44,352 nucleotides of DNA from a virus (Duplodnaviria > Caudoviricetes): positions 1 to 44,352 of the IMG/VR virus record IMGVR_UViG_3300025133_005691; one strand, given 5' to 3'. Position 1 is the stretch's first letter. Every line of letters starts with the position of its first letter. Positions 128 to 38,435 of this stretch are shown in pieces. The translations under genes were made by a program, and so were the position numbers. The notes beneath the pieces were generated by a model, which was not told the origin of the DNA, searched no databases, and saw nothing but the letters and a program-made list of their open reading frames with translations.

Positions 128-3100
128 ATGTCGATCTGTTCAGAGACAACGCAACTGAAAGACACGGTGCTGCATCTGTTGGCATCGTCGGGTACTGCCG
201 ACGATCAGACCAACTACGGGAATGACGGCAGTTTTCAGGGCGGCATGGGTACGGCTGAAGGCACGCAGGGGCTGGAGTATGTGTTTGATGGTGCGGGGCA
301 GTATATTAGCGTGCCAGATGACATATCGCTAGACGTTAGCACGGCCTTGACAGTCTCGTTCTGGTTCAAGAAAGACGACCTAATCACATACGGTGCTTTT
401 GCTGGGAAGTACCTGTCTGGTTCTGAAAGGTCGTTTATCATTCGCACAGACAACAGTGCTGGAAAGCTAGTCTGGCTGGAGTATGACGGAGCAACCCGTC
501 CGATTCTCACATCAGATGCCGCGTTCGTCGCTAACGTGTGGACTCATGTGACAGTTGTGAAAAGTGGTGCGAGCGTGACGTTTCACGTCAACGGTGTGGC
601 GATTGGTGACGACAGCACGGCGATGAACGCGACACTTGCCGCCACGACGCAACCACTACAGGTTGGAAATTATGCGGATGGTGCGGGCGATCAGTTGGCT
701 GGCAGCATGAAAGACATCCGCATAATCTCCCGTGCAATCACCGTCACCGAAATTCGCGAACTTTACAACGCCACCGCACGCCCAACGCTCGACAATGAGG
801 TACTGAAACTCCAGCCAGCGACAGGGCTGGTGGATCAGTCGGCAGCGGGGCAAGCGAACAGCACGTATGTCGGTGATGCTGGAGTGGTTGGGCGTCGGTT
901 TGAGTTTGATGGTAGCGGGGATTACATCACGCTCGGTGATTCGATTGCGTTCTCTGGTGACAGGTCGGTATCGTTTTGGTGTTACCTGAACTCACGGCCA
1001 GGCATGCCACTAGGCGGTGCGTCGGGGAATTACTATCCGTACATCTCGGTGTCGCAAATTCAAATAGCTTCAACCGCTGGTAGTTCTTCGTGGGCCAAAA
1101 CAGTGCCTACCGGCGAATGGGTGCACATCGCGATAACTGGCGACGGAACGACGGCGACACTCTATTACAATGGAGTCAGCCAGGGCACGGCAACAGACCG
1201 CTCACCGACGATCTCAACGATTGCCGCATACGCGGCGGGCACAGAAGAAATTGACGGCTCCCTCGACGACATCAGAATTTTCTCATCCGCCCTAACCGCA
1301 GCCGAAGTCCTCCAACTGTACGAGGGTCGCCCCGGCTGGGAACCATCCGTCGCCCCGAGACAACTGCCCGGCACTGTCCTGCATCTGGAGGCCGCGACAG
1401 GCGAACGGGACCAGAGCTATTACGGGCGGAATTGCACGTTCAACGGGACCAACATTGCCGCAGATTCCAGCAGTGATGCTTTTGTGTTTAATGGGTCGGA
1501 CGATTACATCGATTTAGGTGGAGCACCGTTGCAGGGCGTAGACTCATTCGCTGTATCGCTATGGCTTAACCCTGATAGCGTATCAGGTAACTGGATAGGC
1601 AAATACTCTGGATTCGCAAACCCAGGCACCGACGTGCAGATGATGATCCGCAATGCCACGCAGCTATTCGTGAAAAACGTGGCGGGGTCAATATCGCAAG
1701 CTAACGGGGCAGCAATAACCACCGGAGCGTGGTGGCACATTGTGGGGGTTGGTGACGGAACAAATATTACACTTTACGTTAATGGGGTCGCTGGTACGCC
1801 AGTGGCACTATCGGGGCCATATTTCCCAACAACGTCTGATAGTTGGGTGGTCGGCAACGCTCACGGAACGCCTACAGACGGCTCCATCCGTGATATCCGA
1901 ATTCTCAACACCGCCCTCTCCGCAGATTCCGTCGCCCTGCTGTACAACCGTGGATGTGCGAACTACCGACCGCCAGGGCTGCTCGGCGGCGAGCAGTTGG
2001 CGTTGATGATGAGTCGCCACGAAGTCGGGGTGCTTCCTGGCACGGTGCTTCAACTCGATGGCAGCACTGAATATGCGGACCAGTCTGGGCTGGGGAATGA
2101 CGCGACGAACAGTGGGACGACGATCACGGATGGGAAGTTTGTTTTTGATGGGGTGTCGGATTATATCTCTCAAGACATGCCGTCGCATAATGGATTCGCC
2201 AGCGGCACAATAGCGGTATGGTTTAAGGCGGATGCGTCACAGGTAACGAACGCGAGGCTTGTCTCAATAGGCGAGGACGCGGCGAATCAGGTGGAGTTTT
2301 TTATTGATGCAGCGAAGAAGTTAAACGCATTTGCATATATAAGCTGGGCAGTACAGTTTAACTTCGTCTCAGATTCCACGGTCAACGACGACGCATGGCA
2401 TCACGGCGTGATGACGTGGGAGAGTAATTCTGCCCTCATGTATGTCGATGGCACGCTCCAGGCAGCAAGCGATACAAGCACAGCGGTCTCGCTAACGTCA
2501 GCGGCTGGAAAGTTGTCGATAGGAGAAAAATTCGACATTAGCGGCAAAGTGTTTAACGGCGAACTCGACGACATCCGAATCTTCAACCGTGCCCTATCCG
2601 CCGCAGAAATCACCACCCTTTACAACAACACGATTCAGGACGAATCAGCAAACGGAAACCACGGCGTGATGACGAACGGGGCGTATGTTGGGGAGGACGA
2701 TGAGATCGTTTTGGATGGGGTTGATGATTACGTGGACTGTGGTGCGTCGACCCCAGCGATTGGGACGGGTGATTTAACGATATCGGCGTGGTATTACCGT
2801 GAGACCTCAGACACGAATAACCGCAGACTGCTGGCGACTGGTGGAGCGACTGGGACGCAGGCAGGGTATGCAATAATGGCGAATCAGTCACAAGTACGAT
2901 TGCGGGTATCAGATGGGACTAACTCGGTGCTGGATGGACCGACTCTGACACTTGCGACATGGCAGCATATTGCAGCGGTGGTTGACAACACGACGAACGA
3001 GGCTTACGTGTATTTAGACGGAGCATTGGAAACCACTATCGACATATCGTCGCTCGGATCGGTAGCCAACACCACCAACCTGCTGATCGGGTATGGACAC

Positions 3101-3910
3101 ACGCCGGGGACAGAGTGGCCAGGCTCCATCCGCGACGCCAGAATCTTCAACCGTGCCCTATCAGCCGCCGAGATCCTCGCCCTCGCATCCGAATACGAAT
3201 TCCAGGTGCCGAACACACGCGGCAGCGTTCTGGGAATCGTGCCGAGCTATTTTGATACCGAAGCAGACGTGACGGCGATTGATTGGTCGGGATTTGGCAA
3301 TGCGGGCGTGCTGACGAATGGGCCGACTTATACGGCAGACGTTGACGAGGGTGGGACGCGGGCGATTGAGTTTGATGGGGTGAATGACAGAGTGGAGGTC
3401 GCCCCGCACTCCATCGCAGACGCACTTCCGTGGTCTGTTGCGATGTGGATATATCGAGCTACAGGCTATGAGTCGGTGGAAGGGCTGTACGGTAACGGGG
3501 GGGCAGCTTCGCGTGCTTTTTTCTACAACAACACGGTGCTGTATGTTTTTAATGAGGCCGACACCCAATCCACCACTTTTGCGGTGAGTCCGGCAATAGA
3601 CGGGTGGACTCATATCACACTCGTTTGCGACGGGACCGCAGCGAGCAACCTGTCATACTACGAAGACGGGGTTTTCGGTTCAACGAAAACGCTCGCCGCT
3701 TCTGATCACGTATGGACACACTTCGCTGCGTACAGCACCTCCTCGGATACGATAATCGGAAAAATGGACGACACCTACATTTTCGACCGTGCCCTATCCC
3801 TCGACGAAATAAAAGCACTGGCGTCAACACGAAATTACTTCAACTGTCCGGTAGCTGAAGCCAATCTGTTTGGAGACGCTATCAAGATATGGATGGGGCT
3901 TACTCACTAA
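128..3910 (+). CDS. Multi-LamG (concanavalin A-like) domain protein, putative virion adhesin/receptor-binding protein
   Basis: Six repeats of D-x-S-x-x-G-N...FDGxxDY...W-x-H...LYxNG...GxxDDIRIxxRAL; more GC-rich and CpG-rich than the backbone. Confidence 0.85.
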   Translation: MSICSETTQLKDTVLHLLASSGTADDQTNYGNDGSFQGGMGTAEGTQGLEYVFDGAGQYISVPDDISLDVSTALTVSFWFKKDDLITYGAFAGKYLSGSERSFIIRTDNSAGKLVWLEYDGATRPILTSDAAFVANVWTHVTVVKSGASVTFHVNGVAIGDDSTAMNATLAATTQPLQVGNYADGAGDQLAGSMKDIRIISRAITVTEIRELYNATARPTLDNEVLKLQPATGLVDQSAAGQANSTYVGDAGVVGRRFEFDGSGDYITLGDSIAFSGDRSVSFWCYLNSRPGMPLGGASGNYYPYISVSQIQIASTAGSSSWAKTVPTGEWVHIAITGDGTTATLYYNGVSQGTATDRSPTISTIAAYAAGTEEIDGSLDDIRIFSSALTAAEVLQLYEGRPGWEPSVAPRQLPGTVLHLEAATGERDQSYYGRNCTFNGTNIAADSSSDAFVFNGSDDYIDLGGAPLQGVDSFAVSLWLNPDSVSGNWIGKYSGFANPGTDVQMMIRNATQLFVKNVAGSISQANGAAITTGAWWHIVGVGDGTNITLYVNGVAGTPVALSGPYFPTTSDSWVVGNAHGTPTDGSIRDIRILNTALSADSVALLYNRGCANYRPPGLLGGEQLALMMSRHEVGVLPGTVLQLDGSTEYADQSGLGNDATNSGTTITDGKFVFDGVSDYISQDMPSHNGFASGTIAVWFKADASQVTNARLVSIGEDAANQVEFFIDAAKKLNAFAYISWAVQFNFVSDSTVNDDAWHHGVMTWESNSALMYVDGTLQAASDTSTAVSLTSAAGKLSIGEKFDISGKVFNGELDDIRIFNRALSAAEITTLYNNTIQDESANGNHGVMTNGAYVGEDDEIVLDGVDDYVDCGASTPAIGTGDLTISAWYYRETSDTNNRRLLATGGATGTQAGYAIMANQSQVRLRVSDGTNSVLDGPTLTLATWQHIAAVVDNTTNEAYVYLDGALETTIDISSLGSVANTTNLLIGYGHTPGTEWPGSIRDARIFNRALSAAEILALASEYEFQVPNTRGSVLGIVPSYFDTEADVTAIDWSGFGNAGVLTNGPTYTADVDEGGTRAIEFDGVNDRVEVAPHSIADALPWSVAMWIYRATGYESVEGLYGNGGAASRAFFYNNTVLYVFNEADTQSTTFAVSPAIDGWTHITLVCDGTAASNLSYYEDGVFGSTKTLAASDHVWTHFAAYSTSSDTIIGKMDDTYIFDRALSLDEIKALASTRNYFNCPVAEANLFGDAIKIWMGLTH

Positions 3911-17398: not shown

Positions 17399-18505
17399 AT
17401 GCCTACTATCACTAAAATACATGGGTATCAGAGAAATGCTACTTCCATATCAATAGGACCTCAGACCAATGTGTCTAAAGAGGTTCTCTTGGTAGAGGCT
17501 GAGTCTCCGTTGTCTTCAATGGAAGACATTAGACTAGCCTTGCCTTCCTTCGCTTCAGGTCCAGGTACAGTAGCCTTAAACCCCCTTCAGATTACCTTCA
17601 CCTTAAACCAGTCCCGGCATTACGACAACGGCCATGTTCTGGAACAAGTGTCAGCAGGTAAACGTACCAACACTCATGGTAACTTCTGGGAATTCCCTTT
17701 AACCTATTCTGTGGGTGGAACTGGGGCTATCCACCTCCTCACCCCTCAGACTATTCCTAATGAAAAGAGAAAAGACCAGAAGGTAGAGAAGCCTGACTCT
17801 ACTACCGCTGCTGATAACGATCCTATTATAGATCCTACAAGCAGACCTCCTATCTTCACTGGAAGTAGTAAGATCGTTATGAGGAAGTCTCTTCATGATT
17901 TGGACGGTAAGATCATCCGACATACAAATGGTCTCCCTATCACTAAGCCTATAGCTATCCCAGTAGTCCACAAGAGTTGGTCCTGGGAGTGGAACATACT
18001 TGCTTCGGCTTACGATGAAGCAGACTTCGATGTCATTGCTAACAAAACCAATTCAGTAGCTTTAGTAGTTCCTCAAGGTACTGGGGATACCTATACCATC
18101 CCTATCAATCGTATCAAATGTATGGGGTTCAGTCAGAAGGAAGTATGGGAAACACCAGACGGAGGAGCCCAGGAGTTTCACTACGTTAAGATCACAGGGA
18201 ACTTCGAAGTCAAAGACGATCCGTATGACCTACCTCCTGCTTCCCTCCATACTAAACAGTTATTCAACTCCCTATCTGATGAGCTTCGTCCTATCGAGAT
18301 AAACGAAAGAGGGGATAAGGCTAAAGATCCTTGGCCGCTTGATCCTAACGGAGTAGCTGTTAGTTACGCAGACCTTCCAACAGCAGTGGAAGCTGATTTT
18401 GGAGTACTCCAAGCTGATGGAGCAGATCTGGTAACTGTAAAGTCAGTTAGCTTTAACGCTTTCTTTTCAACTCATGCTCTTGAACTTCCTGGAGATCAGT
18501 CATGA
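17399..18505 (+). CDS. Putative tail tip/baseplate protein
   Basis: 368-aa ORF immediately after tape measure. Confidence 0.6.
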   Translation: MPTITKIHGYQRNATSISIGPQTNVSKEVLLVEAESPLSSMEDIRLALPSFASGPGTVALNPLQITFTLNQSRHYDNGHVLEQVSAGKRTNTHGNFWEFPLTYSVGGTGAIHLLTPQTIPNEKRKDQKVEKPDSTTAADNDPIIDPTSRPPIFTGSSKIVMRKSLHDLDGKIIRHTNGLPITKPIAIPVVHKSWSWEWNILASAYDEADFDVIANKTNSVALVVPQGTGDTYTIPINRIKCMGFSQKEVWETPDGGAQEFHYVKITGNFEVKDDPYDLPPASLHTKQLFNSLSDELRPIEINERGDKAKDPWPLDPNGVAVSYADLPTAVEADFGVLQADGADLVTVKSVSFNAFFSTHALELPGDQS

Positions 18506-19155
18506 GCTTTGGTCTCTACAGCAAAGACCGTGCTGATGCGATGGCACGATGGTACGATGCTCAACAGACAGGAGAAGAAGGTCCGTACTTTGAAGAGGTA
18601 CATGATACCTTTGAGTGGTACTACGTTAAGTTAAAACAAGATCTGGATGCTGCCTCTGATCCTCTTACCGGATACACAGAAGCGACTGCTCAGATAGTCA
18701 AGTACGCCAACACGGCTGATAACAAGGACCGTGAACTGGTAACCAATGCCAACTTTGACATCACGGTCACCAATCGTGGAACGGACATCTCTGCTTCCTC
18801 CGGCGACTACTTCTGGGTAAGAGAAATTGGAGCAGAGTACGTTCCGTTCCTTGGGGGTGGTGGAGGTGGTGGCTCTCAAATTGGTTTCGTCATTACGGAT
18901 GCGGATTGCGTCCCCAGTGCTGGAACAGTCTATACTGAACTAGCCTCCATTGATAGATACACTGGATGCGGAGACCCTCCAGGAGTAGACGACTACACTG
19001 GAGAATACGAGATTGAAGATTACTTCAACCTCATGGGAGATCTCACTGACGAACAGTTGATAGGGAAGAAAGCCTTAGCTATCTACTGGAACAACAATCC
19101 TGCTTGTATACCTCATTGGGAGCTACTAATGGTAGATTGGACTGGAGGCTGTTAA
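18502..19155 (+). CDS. Putative tail protein with Gly6 linker
   Basis: ATGA-coupled, acidic, LGGGGGGGS hinge. Confidence 0.6.
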   Translation: MSFGLYSKDRADAMARWYDAQQTGEEGPYFEEVHDTFEWYYVKLKQDLDAASDPLTGYTEATAQIVKYANTADNKDRELVTNANFDITVTNRGTDISASSGDYFWVREIGAEYVPFLGGGGGGGSQIGFVITDADCVPSAGTVYTELASIDRYTGCGDPPGVDDYTGEYEIEDYFNLMGDLTDEQLIGKKALAIYWNNNPACIPHWELLMVDWTGGC

Positions 19156-19156
19156 A

Positions 19157-20584
19157 ATGCCTATGAACCCTTTCAAAATAGGGCTTGGTACACGCAAGTA
19201 CCAACAGGACAAAGAACCTTTCCTCAAGTGCTCTGAAGGATTAAAACAAGGATGTGGATGTTGTCGTATTGGCCCTTGTGACATCTGTCTTGAATGGGAA
19301 GTGTACGGGGAAGACGCCGAACATGGAACAGCATTAGATAACGGATCTACTTGGACAGGTTCTGCGGGAGGTATTGTCTTTGTAGCCGGATGGGATGAGT
19401 ATACCTGCATCTTCTCAGTTACTCTTGACGGTGAAGAAGTTTACTCTGCTGTCCTCTGCGGCGAATACGGAGAAGAAACAGTCACTTGTAGAGACTGGGA
19501 CAACGAGGTGTCCTTCACTAAGGATGCCGGAGGTTATAACGAACAGTCTGGAACTTTCCGTTGGGCTAAGAAAACCCGATTGGAAATGATGGACCGCAAA
19601 GGAAGTAAGGACTACGGTTCTGAGAATGCCTGTGCTCGTCCCTTCTGTGGCGACGACTGCGACTGTACTCCAGAAGTACTCTGTGTTTCCATCGGTACTT
19701 CTTCAGACTACTTTGATTGTACGGGAGAGGTTCCTTTCACTGGAACCAAATGTGATGGTAAAGTAACAGAAGCGGAATGGTCAGGAGACATAGCGTGTAG
19801 CTCCGGCGATACTATGTCTGTAACTCTAACTCTTACCCGTAATGAGTATACAGATGAATGTGAACTCTCAGGTTCAGCCTCAGGAACTGTAGACGAAGAA
19901 GCCATATCTTTAGACTTGGAAGCTGAAATCATTTACGACTGTGTGACCATGTCTGCTATCTTCCTTGTTACTATCGGATACGAAGAGTATACCATCTCAG
20001 TCAACTCTTTAGAGTGTGACACTTGTGATCCTGGAGTCTGTCTAATCTGTTGCGACTCTGTTCCTCCTTTTCCTCCTTCCAACCTGGTCTGCCGTATCTC
20101 CTTAGGAGAAGTCATTCACCCAGAAGACCCGGAGCCTCCTATCGATCTAAGTTGTTGGTCAGATCTGGAGTTCAATCTTGCCTTCCTTTACGACGTAGAC
20201 GAGGATGACACAGGAGCATGTGAAGGATTCGGAACCACCAGGAGAGCTGATTGTATCGGAAACCTACTTGACGGAGAATTTGACGAGTCATGTTGTGCAG
20301 GAGGTCAATGGGTAGGAAGTGGAAGTAATAGTTGTGGTAACATAAGCGTATGCTTCATCCCCTGTGCTACTGTTATCTGTCCTCCTGACACAGATGAAAT
20401 CACTTATGTTGCATGGGATGTTCATATTGCAATCAGTGGAGGTCAGTGTGATGCTGAGGGAATGTGTTTAGTTTGCGGAGATACTATCGCATGGTCCAGG
20501 GAAGGGTTCCTGGTCTGCGGAGATACTCTTTTCACCCCCGGAACAGGATCTGTCGCATTGATTGTCGACATATCGGAAAGCTAA
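19157..20584 (+). CDS. Cysteine-rich acidic putative tail protein
   Basis: 38 Cys in 475 aa by my count; GCGCC, CDC and CC clusters. Confidence 0.7.
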   Translation: MPMNPFKIGLGTRKYQQDKEPFLKCSEGLKQGCGCCRIGPCDICLEWEVYGEDAEHGTALDNGSTWTGSAGGIVFVAGWDEYTCIFSVTLDGEEVYSAVLCGEYGEETVTCRDWDNEVSFTKDAGGYNEQSGTFRWAKKTRLEMMDRKGSKDYGSENACARPFCGDDCDCTPEVLCVSIGTSSDYFDCTGEVPFTGTKCDGKVTEAEWSGDIACSSGDTMSVTLTLTRNEYTDECELSGSASGTVDEEAISLDLEAEIIYDCVTMSAIFLVTIGYEEYTISVNSLECDTCDPGVCLICCDSVPPFPPSNLVCRISLGEVIHPEDPEPPIDLSCWSDLEFNLAFLYDVDEDDTGACEGFGTTRRADCIGNLLDGEFDESCCAGGQWVGSGSNSCGNISVCFIPCATVICPPDTDEITYVAWDVHIAISGGQCDAEGMCLVCGDTIAWSREGFLVCGDTLFTPGTGSVALIVDISES

Positions 20585-20585
20585 C

Positions 20586-23165
20586 ATGCACGCTTCAACA
20601 AAAGAACGTCTCCAGAAAATGAAGGAGAGAAGAAAAGGACGCACCTACGTGAAGACTCGCGTAGTTGCTCCTGCTGTTATCTCCCAGCGAAAGAAGGCCG
20701 CAACAGTAAGAGGGTTTACTGGCACATACCTGGCTAAGGATATCAAATGGTTAACAGGCGTAGGAGGAACCCGAAGCAAAGGTTGCCGTTGCAAAACCCT
20801 TGCCAATGAAATGGATAAAAAGGGGGCTGACTGGTGCGAAGAGAATGCTGACTACATCGTTGACAGGATGATGGAGAACGTAGAGCTTTTGGCTGAATCC
20901 CTTGGGGTAGCAAAGAGCATCTTGAATACAACAATAGGGAAGCTCTCTCTTAGGTCTGGAGCCAAACTTCTTCTCTGGAACGCTATCAGAAAAGACAGAG
21001 CTAAGAGATCTCCTACGAATAAAAAGAGACACAGTAGAAGACTTCCTAGAAGAAATGTCAATCCATCTTCTGAGCCTGTCCTCTTTGCCGACACTATCAC
21101 ACGAAACTTAATGGTTCATATCTTCCCAGTGAAAGGTAAATGGGAATGGTTAGTCAAAGTCCTGAAGGAAGCAGACAAAAGTTTCAATGGTAGACGTTTG
21201 ATATCCATTGTCCAGGAACCAAACAATAGGGTTAAGTATAAGACCAGGGTACTCAAACTGGACTCTCCTGATACAGTTAAAACAACTCTAGAAGGGTTTG
21301 ATTGTGAAGTCTCAATCAGACCTAACAACAAGGAAGAAGGAGAATACGTATCATTTGTCCCGATGCTGAAGTCCTTAAAAACAGAAGACAGCAACCAAAT
21401 TACTTTCTACTTGCATAGCAAAGGAACGAAGCATTCTAACTCTGAATTTGATTCCATACAGAAGTGGAGCCAAGCAATGCTTCTTCCTTTGCTGGATCTT
21501 CCAAGCGTAGACGCTGCCTTTGTAAGAGGTGCGAACCTGGTTGGAGCAATAGGAGGAGACGTTTTTAGTTCTGGTGATGCTCCTATGGGGTCTTTCTACT
21601 GGTTTAGAAACTCTGCTGTTCCTTCTCTAACTTCTGGTCATCGTCCTTTTTACTTGTCTGAATACTGGCCTTCTAAGTTTGATTGTAAGGAGTTTCTATT
21701 AGGTATCCTACCAGGGGAGAAACCTTTCAAATCGATGTACAAGGAATCCTTCTGGAGAAAAGGACAAGGTGCTCTTTGGGTTTCTGAATGGAATAAACGG
21801 AATGTCTTCAAGATAGACAATCCTTTGATTACTTTGATTACTCCGACTGGGGATCGTCCAGAAGCCTTCAAACTCTGTGAACAATGGATATCCAATCAGA
21901 CCTACAAAGGGGACATTCAATGGATTATTGTAGATGATGGAAAGACACCAACAAGACCTTCTCTTCCAGGTCAGGAAGTAATAAGAAGAGAACCTTCTAC
22001 TACAGATGCTCATACTCTTCCACAGAACCTGTCTGCTGCCTTTTCACAGGTACGAGGTGACTTCATACTCATCATTGAAGATGATGACTACTACCCTCCT
22101 GAGTATCTTGAACTCATGGTGTCTCAGTTGCAAACGGCAGAACTTGTAGGAGAACAAGGAGCCCGGTATTATTATCTTCCGTCTTCTACCTTTAGGCATT
22201 ATGGAGAGCATACTCACAGCAGTCTTTGTCGTACTGGGTTTCGTAGCTCAGTACTTCCTTTAGTTAAAACCATCTCTGCTACCTCCAACGAATCCATAGA
22301 CTTAAAGCTATGGGAACAATGGAAGGGAACCAAACAACAATGGCAGTCAACGACTATTGGCTGTATTGGGATGAAAGGATTACCTGGACGTAAATCTCAT
22401 AACTCAGTAAGACCTGAGACGCCTGATGACCACCTGATTACTTTGAAACGATGGATCAAAGACTGGGATCAGTACCTCCCGTATTTACCAACTCTTCCAG
22501 ACCCGATAGGAGCAGTAGTATCAGTAATAGTCAATGAGTACGATCCTCCTAGGCCGACAATAGTAGATAAGAACTTTCCCTCCATTCTTCTAACCGATCA
22601 TTCAATAGTGATATCTGGTTGGAACACTAAGGTAGTTAAAACAAAAGAACACCAGCCGAGAGAGTCTCGAAGGCTAAAGATTCTGGCTTGTAATGAATTC
22701 CCAGAATACGAATGGATTCTTTACTATGATGGTCAACTGCAGTTACTGAAGTCACCTACTGAATGGTTTAACTCTTGTAGGGCTCATGGAGATTCAGACA
22801 TTTATCTCTACCAGCATCAAAATAGAAATTGTATCTATGAAGAAGCAAGACAAATAGTTAGAATAGGAAAGGATACGGCTAAGAACGTAAATCCTCAAAT
22901 AACCAAATACAAACAACAAGGTATTCCTACAAATGGAGGTCTTTATTTGGGGGGCATTCACATAAGGAAGAACACTCCAGAAGTAAGGGCATTCGAACGT
23001 CTCTGGTGGGAAGAAGTTTCTTCTGGTTCTGTCCGAGACCAACTTTCTTTACCTGTCGCTCTCCATCGTAGCAAGGTAGACTTTATTGTCATGCCTCCTA
23101 TGCTCTGGTCAACTCAGTTCCAAAGATACGAACACGGTTCCAATATTAAAATAGAAGAGAAATAG
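20586..23165 (+). CDS. Multi-domain glycosyltransferase (GT-A/GT2-like plus DUF616-like C-terminal domain)
   Basis: LITPTGDR...IIVDDG...IEDDDYY; C-terminal IYEEA...RDQLSLP; central YLHSKG segment; ATG 20586 follows the upstream stop. Confidence 0.8.
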   Translation: MHASTKERLQKMKERRKGRTYVKTRVVAPAVISQRKKAATVRGFTGTYLAKDIKWLTGVGGTRSKGCRCKTLANEMDKKGADWCEENADYIVDRMMENVELLAESLGVAKSILNTTIGKLSLRSGAKLLLWNAIRKDRAKRSPTNKKRHSRRLPRRNVNPSSEPVLFADTITRNLMVHIFPVKGKWEWLVKVLKEADKSFNGRRLISIVQEPNNRVKYKTRVLKLDSPDTVKTTLEGFDCEVSIRPNNKEEGEYVSFVPMLKSLKTEDSNQITFYLHSKGTKHSNSEFDSIQKWSQAMLLPLLDLPSVDAAFVRGANLVGAIGGDVFSSGDAPMGSFYWFRNSAVPSLTSGHRPFYLSEYWPSKFDCKEFLLGILPGEKPFKSMYKESFWRKGQGALWVSEWNKRNVFKIDNPLITLITPTGDRPEAFKLCEQWISNQTYKGDIQWIIVDDGKTPTRPSLPGQEVIRREPSTTDAHTLPQNLSAAFSQVRGDFILIIEDDDYYPPEYLELMVSQLQTAELVGEQGARYYYLPSSTFRHYGEHTHSSLCRTGFRSSVLPLVKTISATSNESIDLKLWEQWKGTKQQWQSTTIGCIGMKGLPGRKSHNSVRPETPDDHLITLKRWIKDWDQYLPYLPTLPDPIGAVVSVIVNEYDPPRPTIVDKNFPSILLTDHSIVISGWNTKVVKTKEHQPRESRRLKILACNEFPEYEWILYYDGQLQLLKSPTEWFNSCRAHGDSDIYLYQHQNRNCIYEEARQIVRIGKDTAKNVNPQITKYKQQGIPTNGGLYLGGIHIRKNTPEVRAFERLWWEEVSSGSVRDQLSLPVALHRSKVDFIVMPPMLWSTQFQRYEHGSNIKIEEK

Positions 23166-33046: not shown

Positions 33047-33883
33047 ATGATAATAGCATGGTGGAGTGCGGGTGTAACTAGTGCAGTGGCAACCAAGTTA
33101 GCCATAAATGAATTTGGTATTGATAATGTTGTACCTATTTATTTTAAAATAGACAGTGCTCATGAAGATAACGCCAGGTTCAAGTCTGAATGTGAGGAGT
33201 GGTACGGTAAAGAAATAGAGACGTATCAATCTGAGAAGTATAAGGATCAGTTTGAAGTTATAATCAACGATAGATATGTGAATGGCCCAGGTGGTGCAAG
33301 GTGTACGCTTGTACTAAAGAGAAGAGTTAGGCAAAAGATTGAACATGAACTCGACTACAATGGACAAATCTTTGGTTTTGAGTACAGTAAGAAGGAAGTT
33401 AATAGGGCTATAAGGTTCAGTGAACAGTACCCTACAGCTAAACCTTTATTCCCTTTGATAGAACACAAGATGAATAAACCTGAGTGTTTATATTATTTAG
33501 AAGATGCAGGTATTGAAAGGCCTGAGATGTATAAGTTAGGTTACAAAAACAATAATTGTATTGGTTGTGTCAAAGGCGGTGCAGGATACTGGAATAAAAT
33601 ACGTGTTGATTTTCCTGAATCCTTTAAGAAAATGTCTGAGGCAGAGAGAATTGTAGGTCACTCATGCTTACGTGGAACATTTCTTGACGAACTTGACCCC
33701 AACAAAGGACACAAACAAAAAACGATTATGCCTGACTGTGGTAATTTTTGTGATCTTGAGTTTGAAGATATACTTCACCCAAAGGTAGATGAAATATTTG
33801 ATGAACCAACTAAACTAAGACATCTTCCAAAAGATATGAAGTTGACTAAGTTCCTAGCAAGATACGAGGAGAATAGGTCGTGA
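33047..33883 (+). CDS. PAPS reductase-like (PP-loop) protein, moron
   Basis: WWSAGVTS PP-loop variant, CTLVLK, NNNCIGCVKGG; AT-rich relative to flanks. Confidence 0.8.
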   Translation: MIIAWWSAGVTSAVATKLAINEFGIDNVVPIYFKIDSAHEDNARFKSECEEWYGKEIETYQSEKYKDQFEVIINDRYVNGPGGARCTLVLKRRVRQKIEHELDYNGQIFGFEYSKKEVNRAIRFSEQYPTAKPLFPLIEHKMNKPECLYYLEDAGIERPEMYKLGYKNNNCIGCVKGGAGYWNKIRVDFPESFKKMSEAERIVGHSCLRGTFLDELDPNKGHKQKTIMPDCGNFCDLEFEDILHPKVDEIFDEPTKLRHLPKDMKLTKFLARYEENRS

Positions 33884-35413: not shown

Positions 35414-35567
35414 GTTCAAATGTCAAGGATGTTGGAACGTCTACCCTGAATCAGAACTTGAATGTGATCACATCATCCCTCTCCAGCAAGGAGGACCTGA
35501 CCATGAGATAAACTGTCAAACCCTCTGCATCCCTTGCCACCGTAAGAAATCAAAGAGTGAATCATGA
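35301..35567 (+). CDS. HNH endonuclease (gp74-like)
   Basis: RDEFKCQGC...DHIIP...GG...NCQTLCIPCH. Confidence 0.88.
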   Translation: MGRIFPSIRIPKRKYHKSSPVQRRTAGRRRRNVLLRDEFKCQGCWNVYPESELECDHIIPLQQGGPDHEINCQTLCIPCHRKKSKSES

Positions 35568-36400
35568 TCTCTGCTAAGAACCTTCATCGTGCAGCAATGC
35601 TCTCCAATGGAATGTACACCTCCCGTGCTCTCGGACGGAAGTGGACATGTGAGAACCTATACAACGACACCCATCTCTACACTCGAAGTGTGGATCTCTC
35701 TCGCAACCTCATCGGAGATGTTGGTCATATTAAGGTAGCAGTAACCGAACTGGGGAAAGACCTTTACTTCGGTTTCAGTGGAACCCAGGACGCTGAGTTT
35801 TGGCTCTACAACATAGACGGAGATATTGATAAGACTCCCTACACTGTCCTCTACGGTATCAATTACGATGCTCATGCTGGCTTCCTTGATCTGGCAAAGA
35901 CTGTCTATACCTTAGCATTGCAACACCTGCCAGAACACATCAAAGACCTCTCTCAATACGACAACCTTTACTTCACAGGTCACTCAGCAGGTGGTGCAGT
36001 TGCTGCCTTGATGCCTTTCTTCGTTAGACAGAAACAATTACTCCTTACTCATGACAAACTGAAAGTCATTGACTTCGGTTCACCTCGTATCTGGGCAGAC
36101 TCCTGTGAATACCCCTTTGAACGACACCGCTTCCAGCACGTCTTCGACCTCATCCCGTGTGCTCCTTTGCATTGGAGGGGACCTTTACCTGGCTTCTCCC
36201 ACAGTGGCGAAGTGCATTGGACGACCACCAAGTACCGAGTACTCAACAAAGCTCCCTGGTTCCGTATTCCCCGAATGCTCTGGGAGTACGGCAAAGGAGT
36301 AGCTACCCTCTCAGCAGCACAGAAAGCATTGAAATATCACTCCTCCCATCAGTACTCCTCAACTGTACTGGCTAACTACTTCATGGACACAGACCTATGA
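35564..36400 (+). CDS. Class 3 lipase (alpha/beta hydrolase)
   Basis: FSGT, AHAGF, TGHSAGG nucleophile elbow, FGSPR, DLIP, C-terminal His. Confidence 0.88.
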   Translation: MISAKNLHRAAMLSNGMYTSRALGRKWTCENLYNDTHLYTRSVDLSRNLIGDVGHIKVAVTELGKDLYFGFSGTQDAEFWLYNIDGDIDKTPYTVLYGINYDAHAGFLDLAKTVYTLALQHLPEHIKDLSQYDNLYFTGHSAGGAVAALMPFFVRQKQLLLTHDKLKVIDFGSPRIWADSCEYPFERHRFQHVFDLIPCAPLHWRGPLPGFSHSGEVHWTTTKYRVLNKAPWFRIPRMLWEYGKGVATLSAAQKALKYHSSHQYSSTVLANYFMDTDL

Positions 36401-37776
36401 AAAGGAAAATAATCACCTTCATCCTGGCCTTCCTGATACTCACCTTAACGTCCTTTGGTGCTCAAGGGGTCTACTCCCTCCAATCTCGTACTCCCTGCCC
36501 TCCGGGGTCAACCTGAGGACCCTCCGCAAGACCTGGTACAGGTTTTGAGATCGGACAGGGGTCAGCAGTAATGGTCTCAGTCAAGGACGGCTTCGGATGG
36601 TTCCTCTCCACCGGCCATGTATTCGGACAGTACAACGCAGTATGGATAGAAGACAGATGGTACGAAGTACAGGTATCTCACCGATGGATGAATCTCTCCC
36701 TCAATGAGCACCTCATCCTTCTCAAGACTGTCCAGAAGCTACCAGAGAAGAACTTCCCTTTCTTCCGCATAGCAGAAGAAGAATTAAAACCAGGAGACTC
36801 AGCCGTCTACGTTGGCTTCCCTGCCAACCATTACAGAGTTCAACCTTTAAGAGTATCACCATACGGTGGCAGTTTACTCCACACTATACCTCATCCAACA
36901 CAAGGCTTCTCAGGAGGAGGAGTAGTCAAAGGTGGCAACCTCTACGGAATCATCCACGGGTATCACTCACTGTCCCTCATAGGGAGTAGTCACTCTCTAC
37001 CTCCTATCCTCCAGCGAATGAAGCAGGACGCACCTGGAGTATTCTCCACCAATCGTCCTGAGTTAAAACCAAAGATCGTAGCACCTGCACCTCTCCCCAC
37101 CATACCAGAAAAGGCGAAACCATCATGGCCTCCATTCCCTGTTCCTGTGGAGAAGAAAACCCCTTCTACTGTACCTGTACCGAAGAACAACTCAGAATCA
37201 GAGAAGAACAACAAGGACTCCAAATCCTCATCGAAACCACCCTTAAAGAACTCTCCAAAGAAGGAGCCTTCATCGACAACGGAGATGGTTCCTTCTCCAA
37301 AGGACCAGACTACGAATTCTACAAAAAGTTACTCCTTACTAAAAGCAGTGAGGGAGAAGGTATCTAATCCAACCTTATGGCTTAACCTTGCCACTATGGC
37401 TGCCTTGGGACTCACTGGCGGTGGCACTGTCTTCGCTGGATGGAAAGGAATCAAATACGCCTCTACTGCCATGAAACTATGGAAGGGGGCTAAGGCTGCA
37501 AAGGCTTGCTTTCCCTTCAGCGAACCAATGCTGCCAAGAGACGACACAGAAATCCAACAGATCCTTAGTTTACGACAACAGGAACAACGCTCACCTCTAC
37601 ATGACGGCTTTTACGGAATCGCTCTCGAAGACGAACTCAGAGCTGACCCTAACCAAACCATAAAGGATGCGTTCGAGAAAGCTACCGCTCGATTCAATTC
37701 GGTGGCTCCCCTATCGGTACAGACAACGTCGTCTGCACCAATCACCAAACCTCCTACTACGGAGACCATGACATGA
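36397..37776 (+). CDS. Exported trypsin-like serine protease with an in-frame TGA at codon 40 (candidate selenoprotein, 459 aa)
   Basis: ATG 36397 coupled to the lipase stop; signal peptide MKRKIITFILAFLILTLTSFGA; same frame as ORF 36571; STGHV and QGFSGG motifs; Pro/Ser/Lys linker and hydrophobic segment. Confidence 0.7.
36514..36563 (+). promoter_or_regulatory. UGA plus bacterial SECIS-like hairpin
   Basis: TGA 36514-16; GACCC-TCCG-CAAGACCTG-[GTA]-CAGGTTTTG-AGAT-CGGA-CAG-GGGTC. Confidence 0.6.
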
Positions 37777-38435
37777 CACTTCAGGTAGCACAGGGACAGT
37801 TCACGGGAATGATCACCCGATTCAAGAACCAGACGATCATCTTGGCGATGCAACCTTGCATCAATCTACTCACTGAACTGGTTGGCAACGATGAGTTCAA
37901 GAACCGTGCAGGTACAGACGACAGTACCAAAGAGCACCTAACTCAGTTGTTGGCTGGTTGTGACAAACGTCGTCGCATGGTCACCTACAACAAAGACTCT
38001 GTTGACCTGCAATCGATTCTGGATGTAGACACCTCTCTGGAGTCTTCTATGAACCCGATTGCACTGGACGGCATTCAGCTTGGCTCAGGACCTGAGGTAG
38101 AGATTCCCTGGAACTTCGATGGGACAGATCCAAACATCCCTCTCCATAAGGATCTTCACTTCCGCAATGGAGTTGGTGGGATGCTTTACGATGTAGCCTG
38201 TAGGATCCTGGTGAACTACACCCGTCTTGAGTCACGACATCGTACTCAGATGATCACGGTCAATGACAGTAAACGCATGTACTCTTACATGCAGACGTTT
38301 CATGACCTGAGCAACCTCTTGCTTGGATCTGACAACCAGGTTGATGTAGCTCAACCACTGGCAACTGATGAGCCTGCTAACTCCTCTGCACCTAACCGTG
38401 TAGGAGAGACCTCAGTAAACCTTGGCTCAGTATAG
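37773..38435 (+). CDS. Hypothetical protein
   Basis: 220 aa, ATGA-coupled to the protease, last gene before the terminator. Confidence 0.75.
   Translation: MTLQVAQGQFTGMITRFKNQTIILAMQPCINLLTELVGNDEFKNRAGTDDSTKEHLTQLLAGCDKRRRMVTYNKDSVDLQSILDVDTSLESSMNPIALDGIQLGSGPEVEIPWNFDGTDPNIPLHKDLHFRNGVGGMLYDVACRILVNYTRLESRHRTQMITVNDSKRMYSYMQTFHDLSNLLLGSDNQVDVAQPLATDEPANSSAPNRVGETSVNLGSV

Follow-up and report, generated by a model that had tools for sequence, protein, structure and literature searches.

The protease gene at 36397-37776 of a tailed phage from marine metagenome data is probably a phage-encoded selenoprotein gene of an unlisted family. Its frame is interrupted by one TGA at codon 40, which is real and is a genuine feature of the gene. 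It is quite likely that SelB and tRNA-Sec of the host insert selenocysteine (Sec) at this UGA, so that an exported protease with a Cys34-Sec40 loop would result. It is also reasonably probable that this is a true phage selenoprotein, in which a Cx5C motif of an exported protease became Cx5U in one clade and was kept by selection, and that the phage envelope enzyme depends on the selenium and the Sec machinery of the host. An initial annotation of the sequence had proposed a selenoprotein here, and this interpretation is supported by our analysis.

Phage genome and gene locus

The window is the whole stretch of DNA that was analysed (record G000), 44,352 bases of a linear tailed phage genome that is about 85% complete. 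Six runs are listed for this DNA; all are labelled as marine metagenome, and three of them are possibly its source. Genes for the terminase, portal, Clp head protease, capsid, helicase, DNA polymerase A and primase are present. No tRNA genes were found across the whole window, and family profile searches of its 44 ORFs gave no Sel match. As no Sec machinery was detected in the phage, the insertion of Sec would depend on a Sec-using host. TGA is the stop of 16 of the 44 listed genes, which indicates the standard code, with TGA as a normal stop in this phage, as the initial annotation had stated. Promoter and terminator scans remained at chance level, and no match was found among annotated phages and plasmids. 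The host may be a member of the Planctomycetota, which is our guess from CxxGxC-type motifs; the terminase, polymerase and capsid matches in the host search were at most 31% identical. According to the accessible text of PMC4807772, some planctomycetes have the full Sec gene set and others do not.

The features of the locus are as follows:

35564..36400, + strand: class-3 lipase gene, the upstream neighbour (PF01764, E 5e-16; its stop overlaps the protease ATG)
36397..37776, + strand: whole protease gene, 459 codons including one in-frame TGA (frame translation)
36397..36462, + strand: predicted signal peptide, aa 1-22 (basic N-terminus; 19-residue mean hydropathy 2.02)
36463..37041, + strand: trypsin/HtrA-like protease domain with the predicted triad His74, Glu104 and Ser172 (PF13365, model, alignment)
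36496..36498, + strand: TGC codon of Cys34, with which the Cx4-5C loop motif begins (sequence, alignment)
36514..36516, + strand: codon 40, the in-frame TGA, where the motif has its second Cys; likely Sec (frame, contigs, alignment)
36518..36563, + strand: SECIS-like hairpin with the upper stem 36527-35/36539-47 and the apical loop GUA at 36536-38 (folding, bSECIS model)
36571..36573, + strand: ATG (Met59), first start codon past the TGA and gene callers' start for this protein and its close relatives P0002 and P0003 (frame, gene calls)
37054..37356, + strand: Pro/Ser/Lys-rich linker, variable among relatives (alignment)
37372..37452, + strand: Gly-rich, possibly membrane-spanning segment (family alignment; hydropathy)
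37519..37731, + strand: conserved C-terminal tail, no Pfam family (alignment; thioredoxin fusion in P0039)
37773..38435, + strand: 220-aa gene, a conserved downstream neighbour (62-64% identity in L005-L007)

The lipase stop and the protease ATG share the sequence ATGA (36397-36400), so the overlap described in the initial annotation was found as claimed. Three other phage loci (L005-L007) were reached via the downstream 220-aa gene. There, too, a lipase gene immediately precedes the protease, and the order lipase-protease-220-aa gene is kept. No family was found above the cut-off for the 220-aa gene, which is far better kept than the adjoining protease in L005-L007. Elsewhere in the window, a 1260-aa protein with six laminin-G-like repeats (128-3910) is probably a virion adhesin, and accessory genes (20562-23165 and 33047-33883) encode a two-domain glycosyltransferase and a PAPS-reductase-like protein. 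Two neighbouring genes without family matches (18502-20584) were also observed; the first ends in GGC and the second opens with a Cys-rich stretch.

The in-frame TGA

The TGA at 36514-36516 is the sole internal stop of the frame 36397-37776. It lies six codons after Cys34 (C-x5-U), and both points agree with the initial annotation. The peptide quoted there had omitted two residues, the correct reading being FGA-QG-VYSLQ; however, its conclusions are unaffected. There is no in-frame start codon between the TGA and the ATG at 36571, and the collection's own call for the window gene also begins at Met59. The frame is a sense frame with homology on both sides of the UGA, since the relative P0004 matches residues 6-215.

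A sequencing or assembly error at the codon is hardly credible. The same TGA occurs in L001, which differs from the window at 7 of 6658 bases and at none in the protease gene, and in L002, which has no differences. (All seven differences fall within a 200-base part of the 220-aa gene, at 37856-38048.) It also recurs in contigs of other runs: the X2 contig (depth 42.6), possibly the source run, and the X4 contig (depth 4.5, covering 36416-36577), from a run that is not marked as a source, agree with the window at the TGA. Codon 40 is covered by these two contigs; those of X5 and X6 do not span it. The recurrence in another assembly and in a contig of another run shows that the codon is not a read error, and the error is refuted as far as the contigs show. 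These DNA copies are near-identical; they establish that the codon is real, and do not thereby show its conservation.

Distant relatives and the Cys motif

A search of the full library gave 19 matches, of which 15 were kept. Among the four dropped, P0014, P0017 and P0021 are repeat proteins, and P0020 is a distant protease with a match confined to residues 50-190. NCBIfam and PHROGs gave no match for the protease. In 12 of the 15 relatives, an N-terminal Cx4-5C motif precedes the GS/GT strand, and its second Cys is the residue to which codon 40 aligns; the other three (P0013, P0019 and P0022) lack both cysteines. At the protein level, this is in line with the expectation of the initial annotation of Cys at this position in homologues. 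The distance to the catalytic His is also similar: in P0004 and P0005, the nearest Cys forms, the second Cys lies 32 and 34 residues before it, and codon 40 lies 34 residues before it. P0016 has a C-x5-C motif, with the same spacing as the C-x5-U of the window gene.

An N-terminal signal-like segment, judged by eye, is present in all 15 relatives. The L005-L007 proteases also have an unbroken frame and a signal segment, and do not contain the Cx4-5C motif. Since the relatives and these loci keep the signal-bearing 5' segment, this segment belongs to the protease gene; no candidate was found for the upstream short peptide as a separate protein. The alignments indicate that the Cx4-5C motif is common yet dispensable in the family. 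Proteins without the N-terminal Cys pair, namely L005:3390-4973, L006:3389-4972, L007:3392-4972 and P0013, were observed to have an inserted Cys-rich segment that follows the protease domain.

Close relatives

A word-indexed search revealed two close relatives, P0002 and P0003, among 356 candidates. Both begin with MVSVKDG, which corresponds to Met59 of the window gene. The pairwise identities of the protease domains within this trio are 120/167, 108/166 and 121/166 (65-72%), and all three have unbroken frames of 375-401 aa with His and Ser kept. In a tree of 21 rows, the trio formed a single branch (99/99), with P0004 and P0005 as its weakly supported sister group (80/63). A start at the Met59 position was found in none of the 15 other relatives, and Met59 is not conserved outside the three-member clade.

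That P0002 and P0003 were called from Met59 is expected if both share the stop at codon 40. We infer that they do, and that one change from Cys to TGA may have occurred in the ancestor of the clade and been kept over 30% divergence. P0003 lies on a 34.6-kb contig; the contig of P0002 is only 1743 bp. The DNA of both was not found by scans of viral, metagenome and genome collections. The viral scans used the protease, its alignment, the tail, the lipase and two degenerate motifs as queries, and gave either nothing or the records L003-L007 alone, of which L003 and L004 matched by chance, in frames that are unrelated. The metagenome scan returned two copies of the same phage, and the scans of genome collections gave no match.

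The SECIS-like hairpin

The hairpin at 36518-36563 folds as the initial annotation described, with a 9-bp upper stem and a GUA loop which begins 19 nt past the UGA. Its folding energy is -22.6 to -24.3 kcal/mol. Three folding windows gave z-scores of -3.25, -2.69 and -2.31; a 100-nt one gave -0.26, and in it alternative lower stems are favoured and the upper stem alone persists. The bacterial SECIS model of Zhang and Gladyshev, as given in the accessible text of PMC13188914, includes a loop of 3-9 nt, an upper stem of 4-16 bp, G in the first two loop positions, a spacing of 16-37 nt and an MFE of at most -7.5. The hairpin agrees with all these published constraints (GUA, 9 bp, 19 nt, -22.6), in keeping with the initial annotation, which had called it SECIS-like; the comparison was made with our own script on the published constraints. 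Rfam gave no meaningful match.

The bSECIS model is permissive, as 248 of the 1829 TGA triplets on both strands of the window pass. Only 4 of the 1829, the codon-40 TGA included, pass at the energy of this hairpin, and 14 of the 1829 combine a G[GU] loop with a stem of at least 7. One of the 16 true TGA stops is a weak fit to the model. When the limit on the loop is relaxed, 3 of 1112 TGY positions pass at the hairpin's energy. Among 5000 synonymous randomisations, 1742 pass the looser model, 86 equal the hairpin in folding energy, and 31 combine the two. As evidence for Sec, the hairpin gives good support but no proof.

Protein fold and architecture

The initial assignment as a trypsin-like protease was confirmed by Pfam and by modelling. 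PF13365 matched aa 55-185 (E 7.6e-7; 30.4 bits versus a cut-off of 27.6), and the model of the mature domain has a chymotrypsin-like fold (pLDDT 90.9). Model residues 1-192 were compared with HtrA1, DegS, Deg2 and DegP, giving Z of 20.5-21.1. Of the predicted triad, His74 and Ser172 are conserved, and the alignment places Glu104 at the acid position. This position (36706-36708) is Glu in P0001-P0005 and Asp in the other aligned relatives.

In the model, residues 25-33 form strand 1 and residues 50-63 form strand 2, with Cys34 and residue 40 in the loop between them. The fold and the Cys-Sec loop are thus predicted features, and the model confidence of the loop is low (64-70). We take this predicted loop to be the place of the disulfide-bearing loop LA of DegP. 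The segment before Met59 contains strand 1 and most of strand 2, and lies inside the range aligned to the HtrA domains. An ORF started at Met59 would therefore lack strand 1, most of strand 2 and the signal peptide, in agreement with the initial annotation, which had noted the loss of the export signal and a strand. A model of the domain from Met59 onwards is just as confident (pLDDT 93.3), so that folding does not discriminate between the two starts.

No PDZ domain was found in the 460-aa protein; Trypsin_2 is the only family that Pfam finds in it. The hydropathy of the Gly-rich segment is above 1.3 in five of the eight proteins tested and below it in P0001-P0003, and the evidence for a membrane span is therefore weak. 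The Gly-rich segment and the tail (37372-37731) make up a module that is also joined to a thioredoxin (CPPC) domain in P0039. Both partners of this module, the protease and the P0039 thioredoxin, each bring a Cys pair.

Comparison with known systems

The gene resembles bacterial selenoprotein genes (SelA/SelB/SelC/SelD and bSECIS) in having an in-frame UGA at a conserved Cys position, followed 19 nt downstream by a 3-nt loop with G first, on a 9-bp upper stem with an energy well below -7.5. Unlike them, it is borne by a phage without its own Sec machinery, and it encodes a hydrolase rather than an oxidoreductase. Moreover, the C-x5-U spacing is absent from the selenoprotein motifs tabulated in the accessible part of PMC9312934.

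The initial annotation knew of no described selenoprotein of this family. This was not correct for trypsin-like proteins in general, as GOS reads had already yielded nine trypsin-like sequences with predicted Sec (PMC2398784; also listed in PMC9312934, both as far as accessible); however, the phage protein belongs to another subfamily with another Sec site. In the GOS trypsin-like selenoproteins (COG5640), predicted in 2008, the motif is GDSGGP and U lies close to the C-terminus of the domain (PMC2398784, accessible text). Like them, the phage protein combines a trypsin fold, predicted Sec at a conserved Cys, a predicted SECIS element and a marine origin; but its motif is GFSGGG, its best structural matches are HtrA-like, and its U is N-terminal to the catalytic His. 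The different catalytic motif and Sec site indicate, by what is accessible of PMC2398784, that the phage protease is not of the GOS family. The text of PMC2398784 mentions neither phage nor virus.

The protease fold is also that of the periplasmic proteases HtrA, DegP and DegS (PF13365; PDB 3tjn, 2qf0, 3cs0), with Z of 20.5-21.0 and rmsd 2.5 over 162-169 aligned residues, and export is predicted here as well. The phage protein differs from HtrA in that no PDZ was found, the identity is about 20%, and a Pro-rich linker, a Gly-rich segment and an unnamed tail are present. Glu also replaces the triad Asp in P0001-P0005. No phage selenoprotein was reported by title or by the start of the abstract in the searched literature, which is without most subscription journals. 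The main texts of PMC12013277 and PMC13326102, and the accessible part of PMC13188914, do not mention trypsin, protease, peptidase or phage; the accessible part of the BSepDB supplement does not mention trypsin, protease or peptidase. The preprint of Haft and Gwadz and PMC9402790 describe no phage selenoprotein in their accessible portions.

Alternative explanations

A plain nonsense mutation from TGY to TGA might have broken an accessory gene, with the hairpin being due to chance or a leftover. Only a single base separates TGA from TGC or TGT, every DNA copy is near-identical, and the Cx4-5C motif is dispensable, being absent from P0013, P0019, P0022 and L005-L007. Besides the permissiveness of the SECIS model (248/1829), hairpins also follow Cys codons in the Cys-type relatives of other selenoproteins (PMC13582414, accessible text). 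A dead gene, however, would be expected to decay across the divergence of P0002 and P0003, which are 65-72% identical and start at the same Met59 with intact frames and both His and Ser, and the hairpin is among 4/1829 at its stability; a nonsense mutation is thus improbable. It is highly unlikely that the UGA is a true stop of a split gene, with a signal-less protease made from ATG 36571. Such a product would lose the signal peptide that is present in 15/15 other relatives and in L005-L007, together with strand 1 and most of strand 2, and the location of the stop on a conserved Cys would be left unexplained. The GGGG tract about 10 nt upstream of this ATG, which is consistent with such a start, is paired within the lower stem of the hairpin. 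Met59 is common to all three clade members, but it is not conserved beyond the clade. The pLDDT of 93.3 for the truncated domain also accords with a split gene.

The UGA might also be read through, not as Sec, by SECIS-dependent insertion of Cys by tRNA-ReC or by leaky readthrough. According to the accessible text of PMC13582414, tRNA-ReC decodes UGA as Cys given a SECIS, and Cys is the family residue at codon 40; but about 17% of Sec-type genomes contain tRNA-ReC, in the described cases together with tRNA-Sec, and the phage has no tRNA. Such decoding is very doubtful here. Genome-wide reassignment of UGA is excluded by the 16 TGA stops, most of which are followed by only a short open frame.

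Proposed mechanism and implications

For selenocysteine, the preferred reading, the following mechanism is proposed. SelB of the host would bind the hairpin just past the UGA and deliver Sec-tRNA to codon 40. Readthrough would give the full-length exported protease of the trypsin fold; whereas failed readthrough would leave a 39-residue peptide. The predicted Cys34-Sec40 bridge would close an N-terminal surface loop, and might stabilise or redox-tune the loop or the enzyme. The TGA might have arisen once from a Cys codon in the clade ancestor and then been kept. The full protein would be exported and probably membrane-anchored, and the lipase-protease cassette may act on the host envelope; this role is conjectural, being suggested by the neighbouring lipase gene and by the predicted export.

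Gene callers start such proteins at Met59, so that such genes would be hidden in databases. If the interpretation is true, phages use the 21st amino acid of their hosts, and the UGA and SECIS would constrain the host of this phage to a Sec-using bacterium. It would also add a selenoprotein family which is not an oxidoreductase and has a new Sec site. A single family with Cys, Sec and Cys-less members would then provide a natural comparison of the role of Sec in an exported protease.
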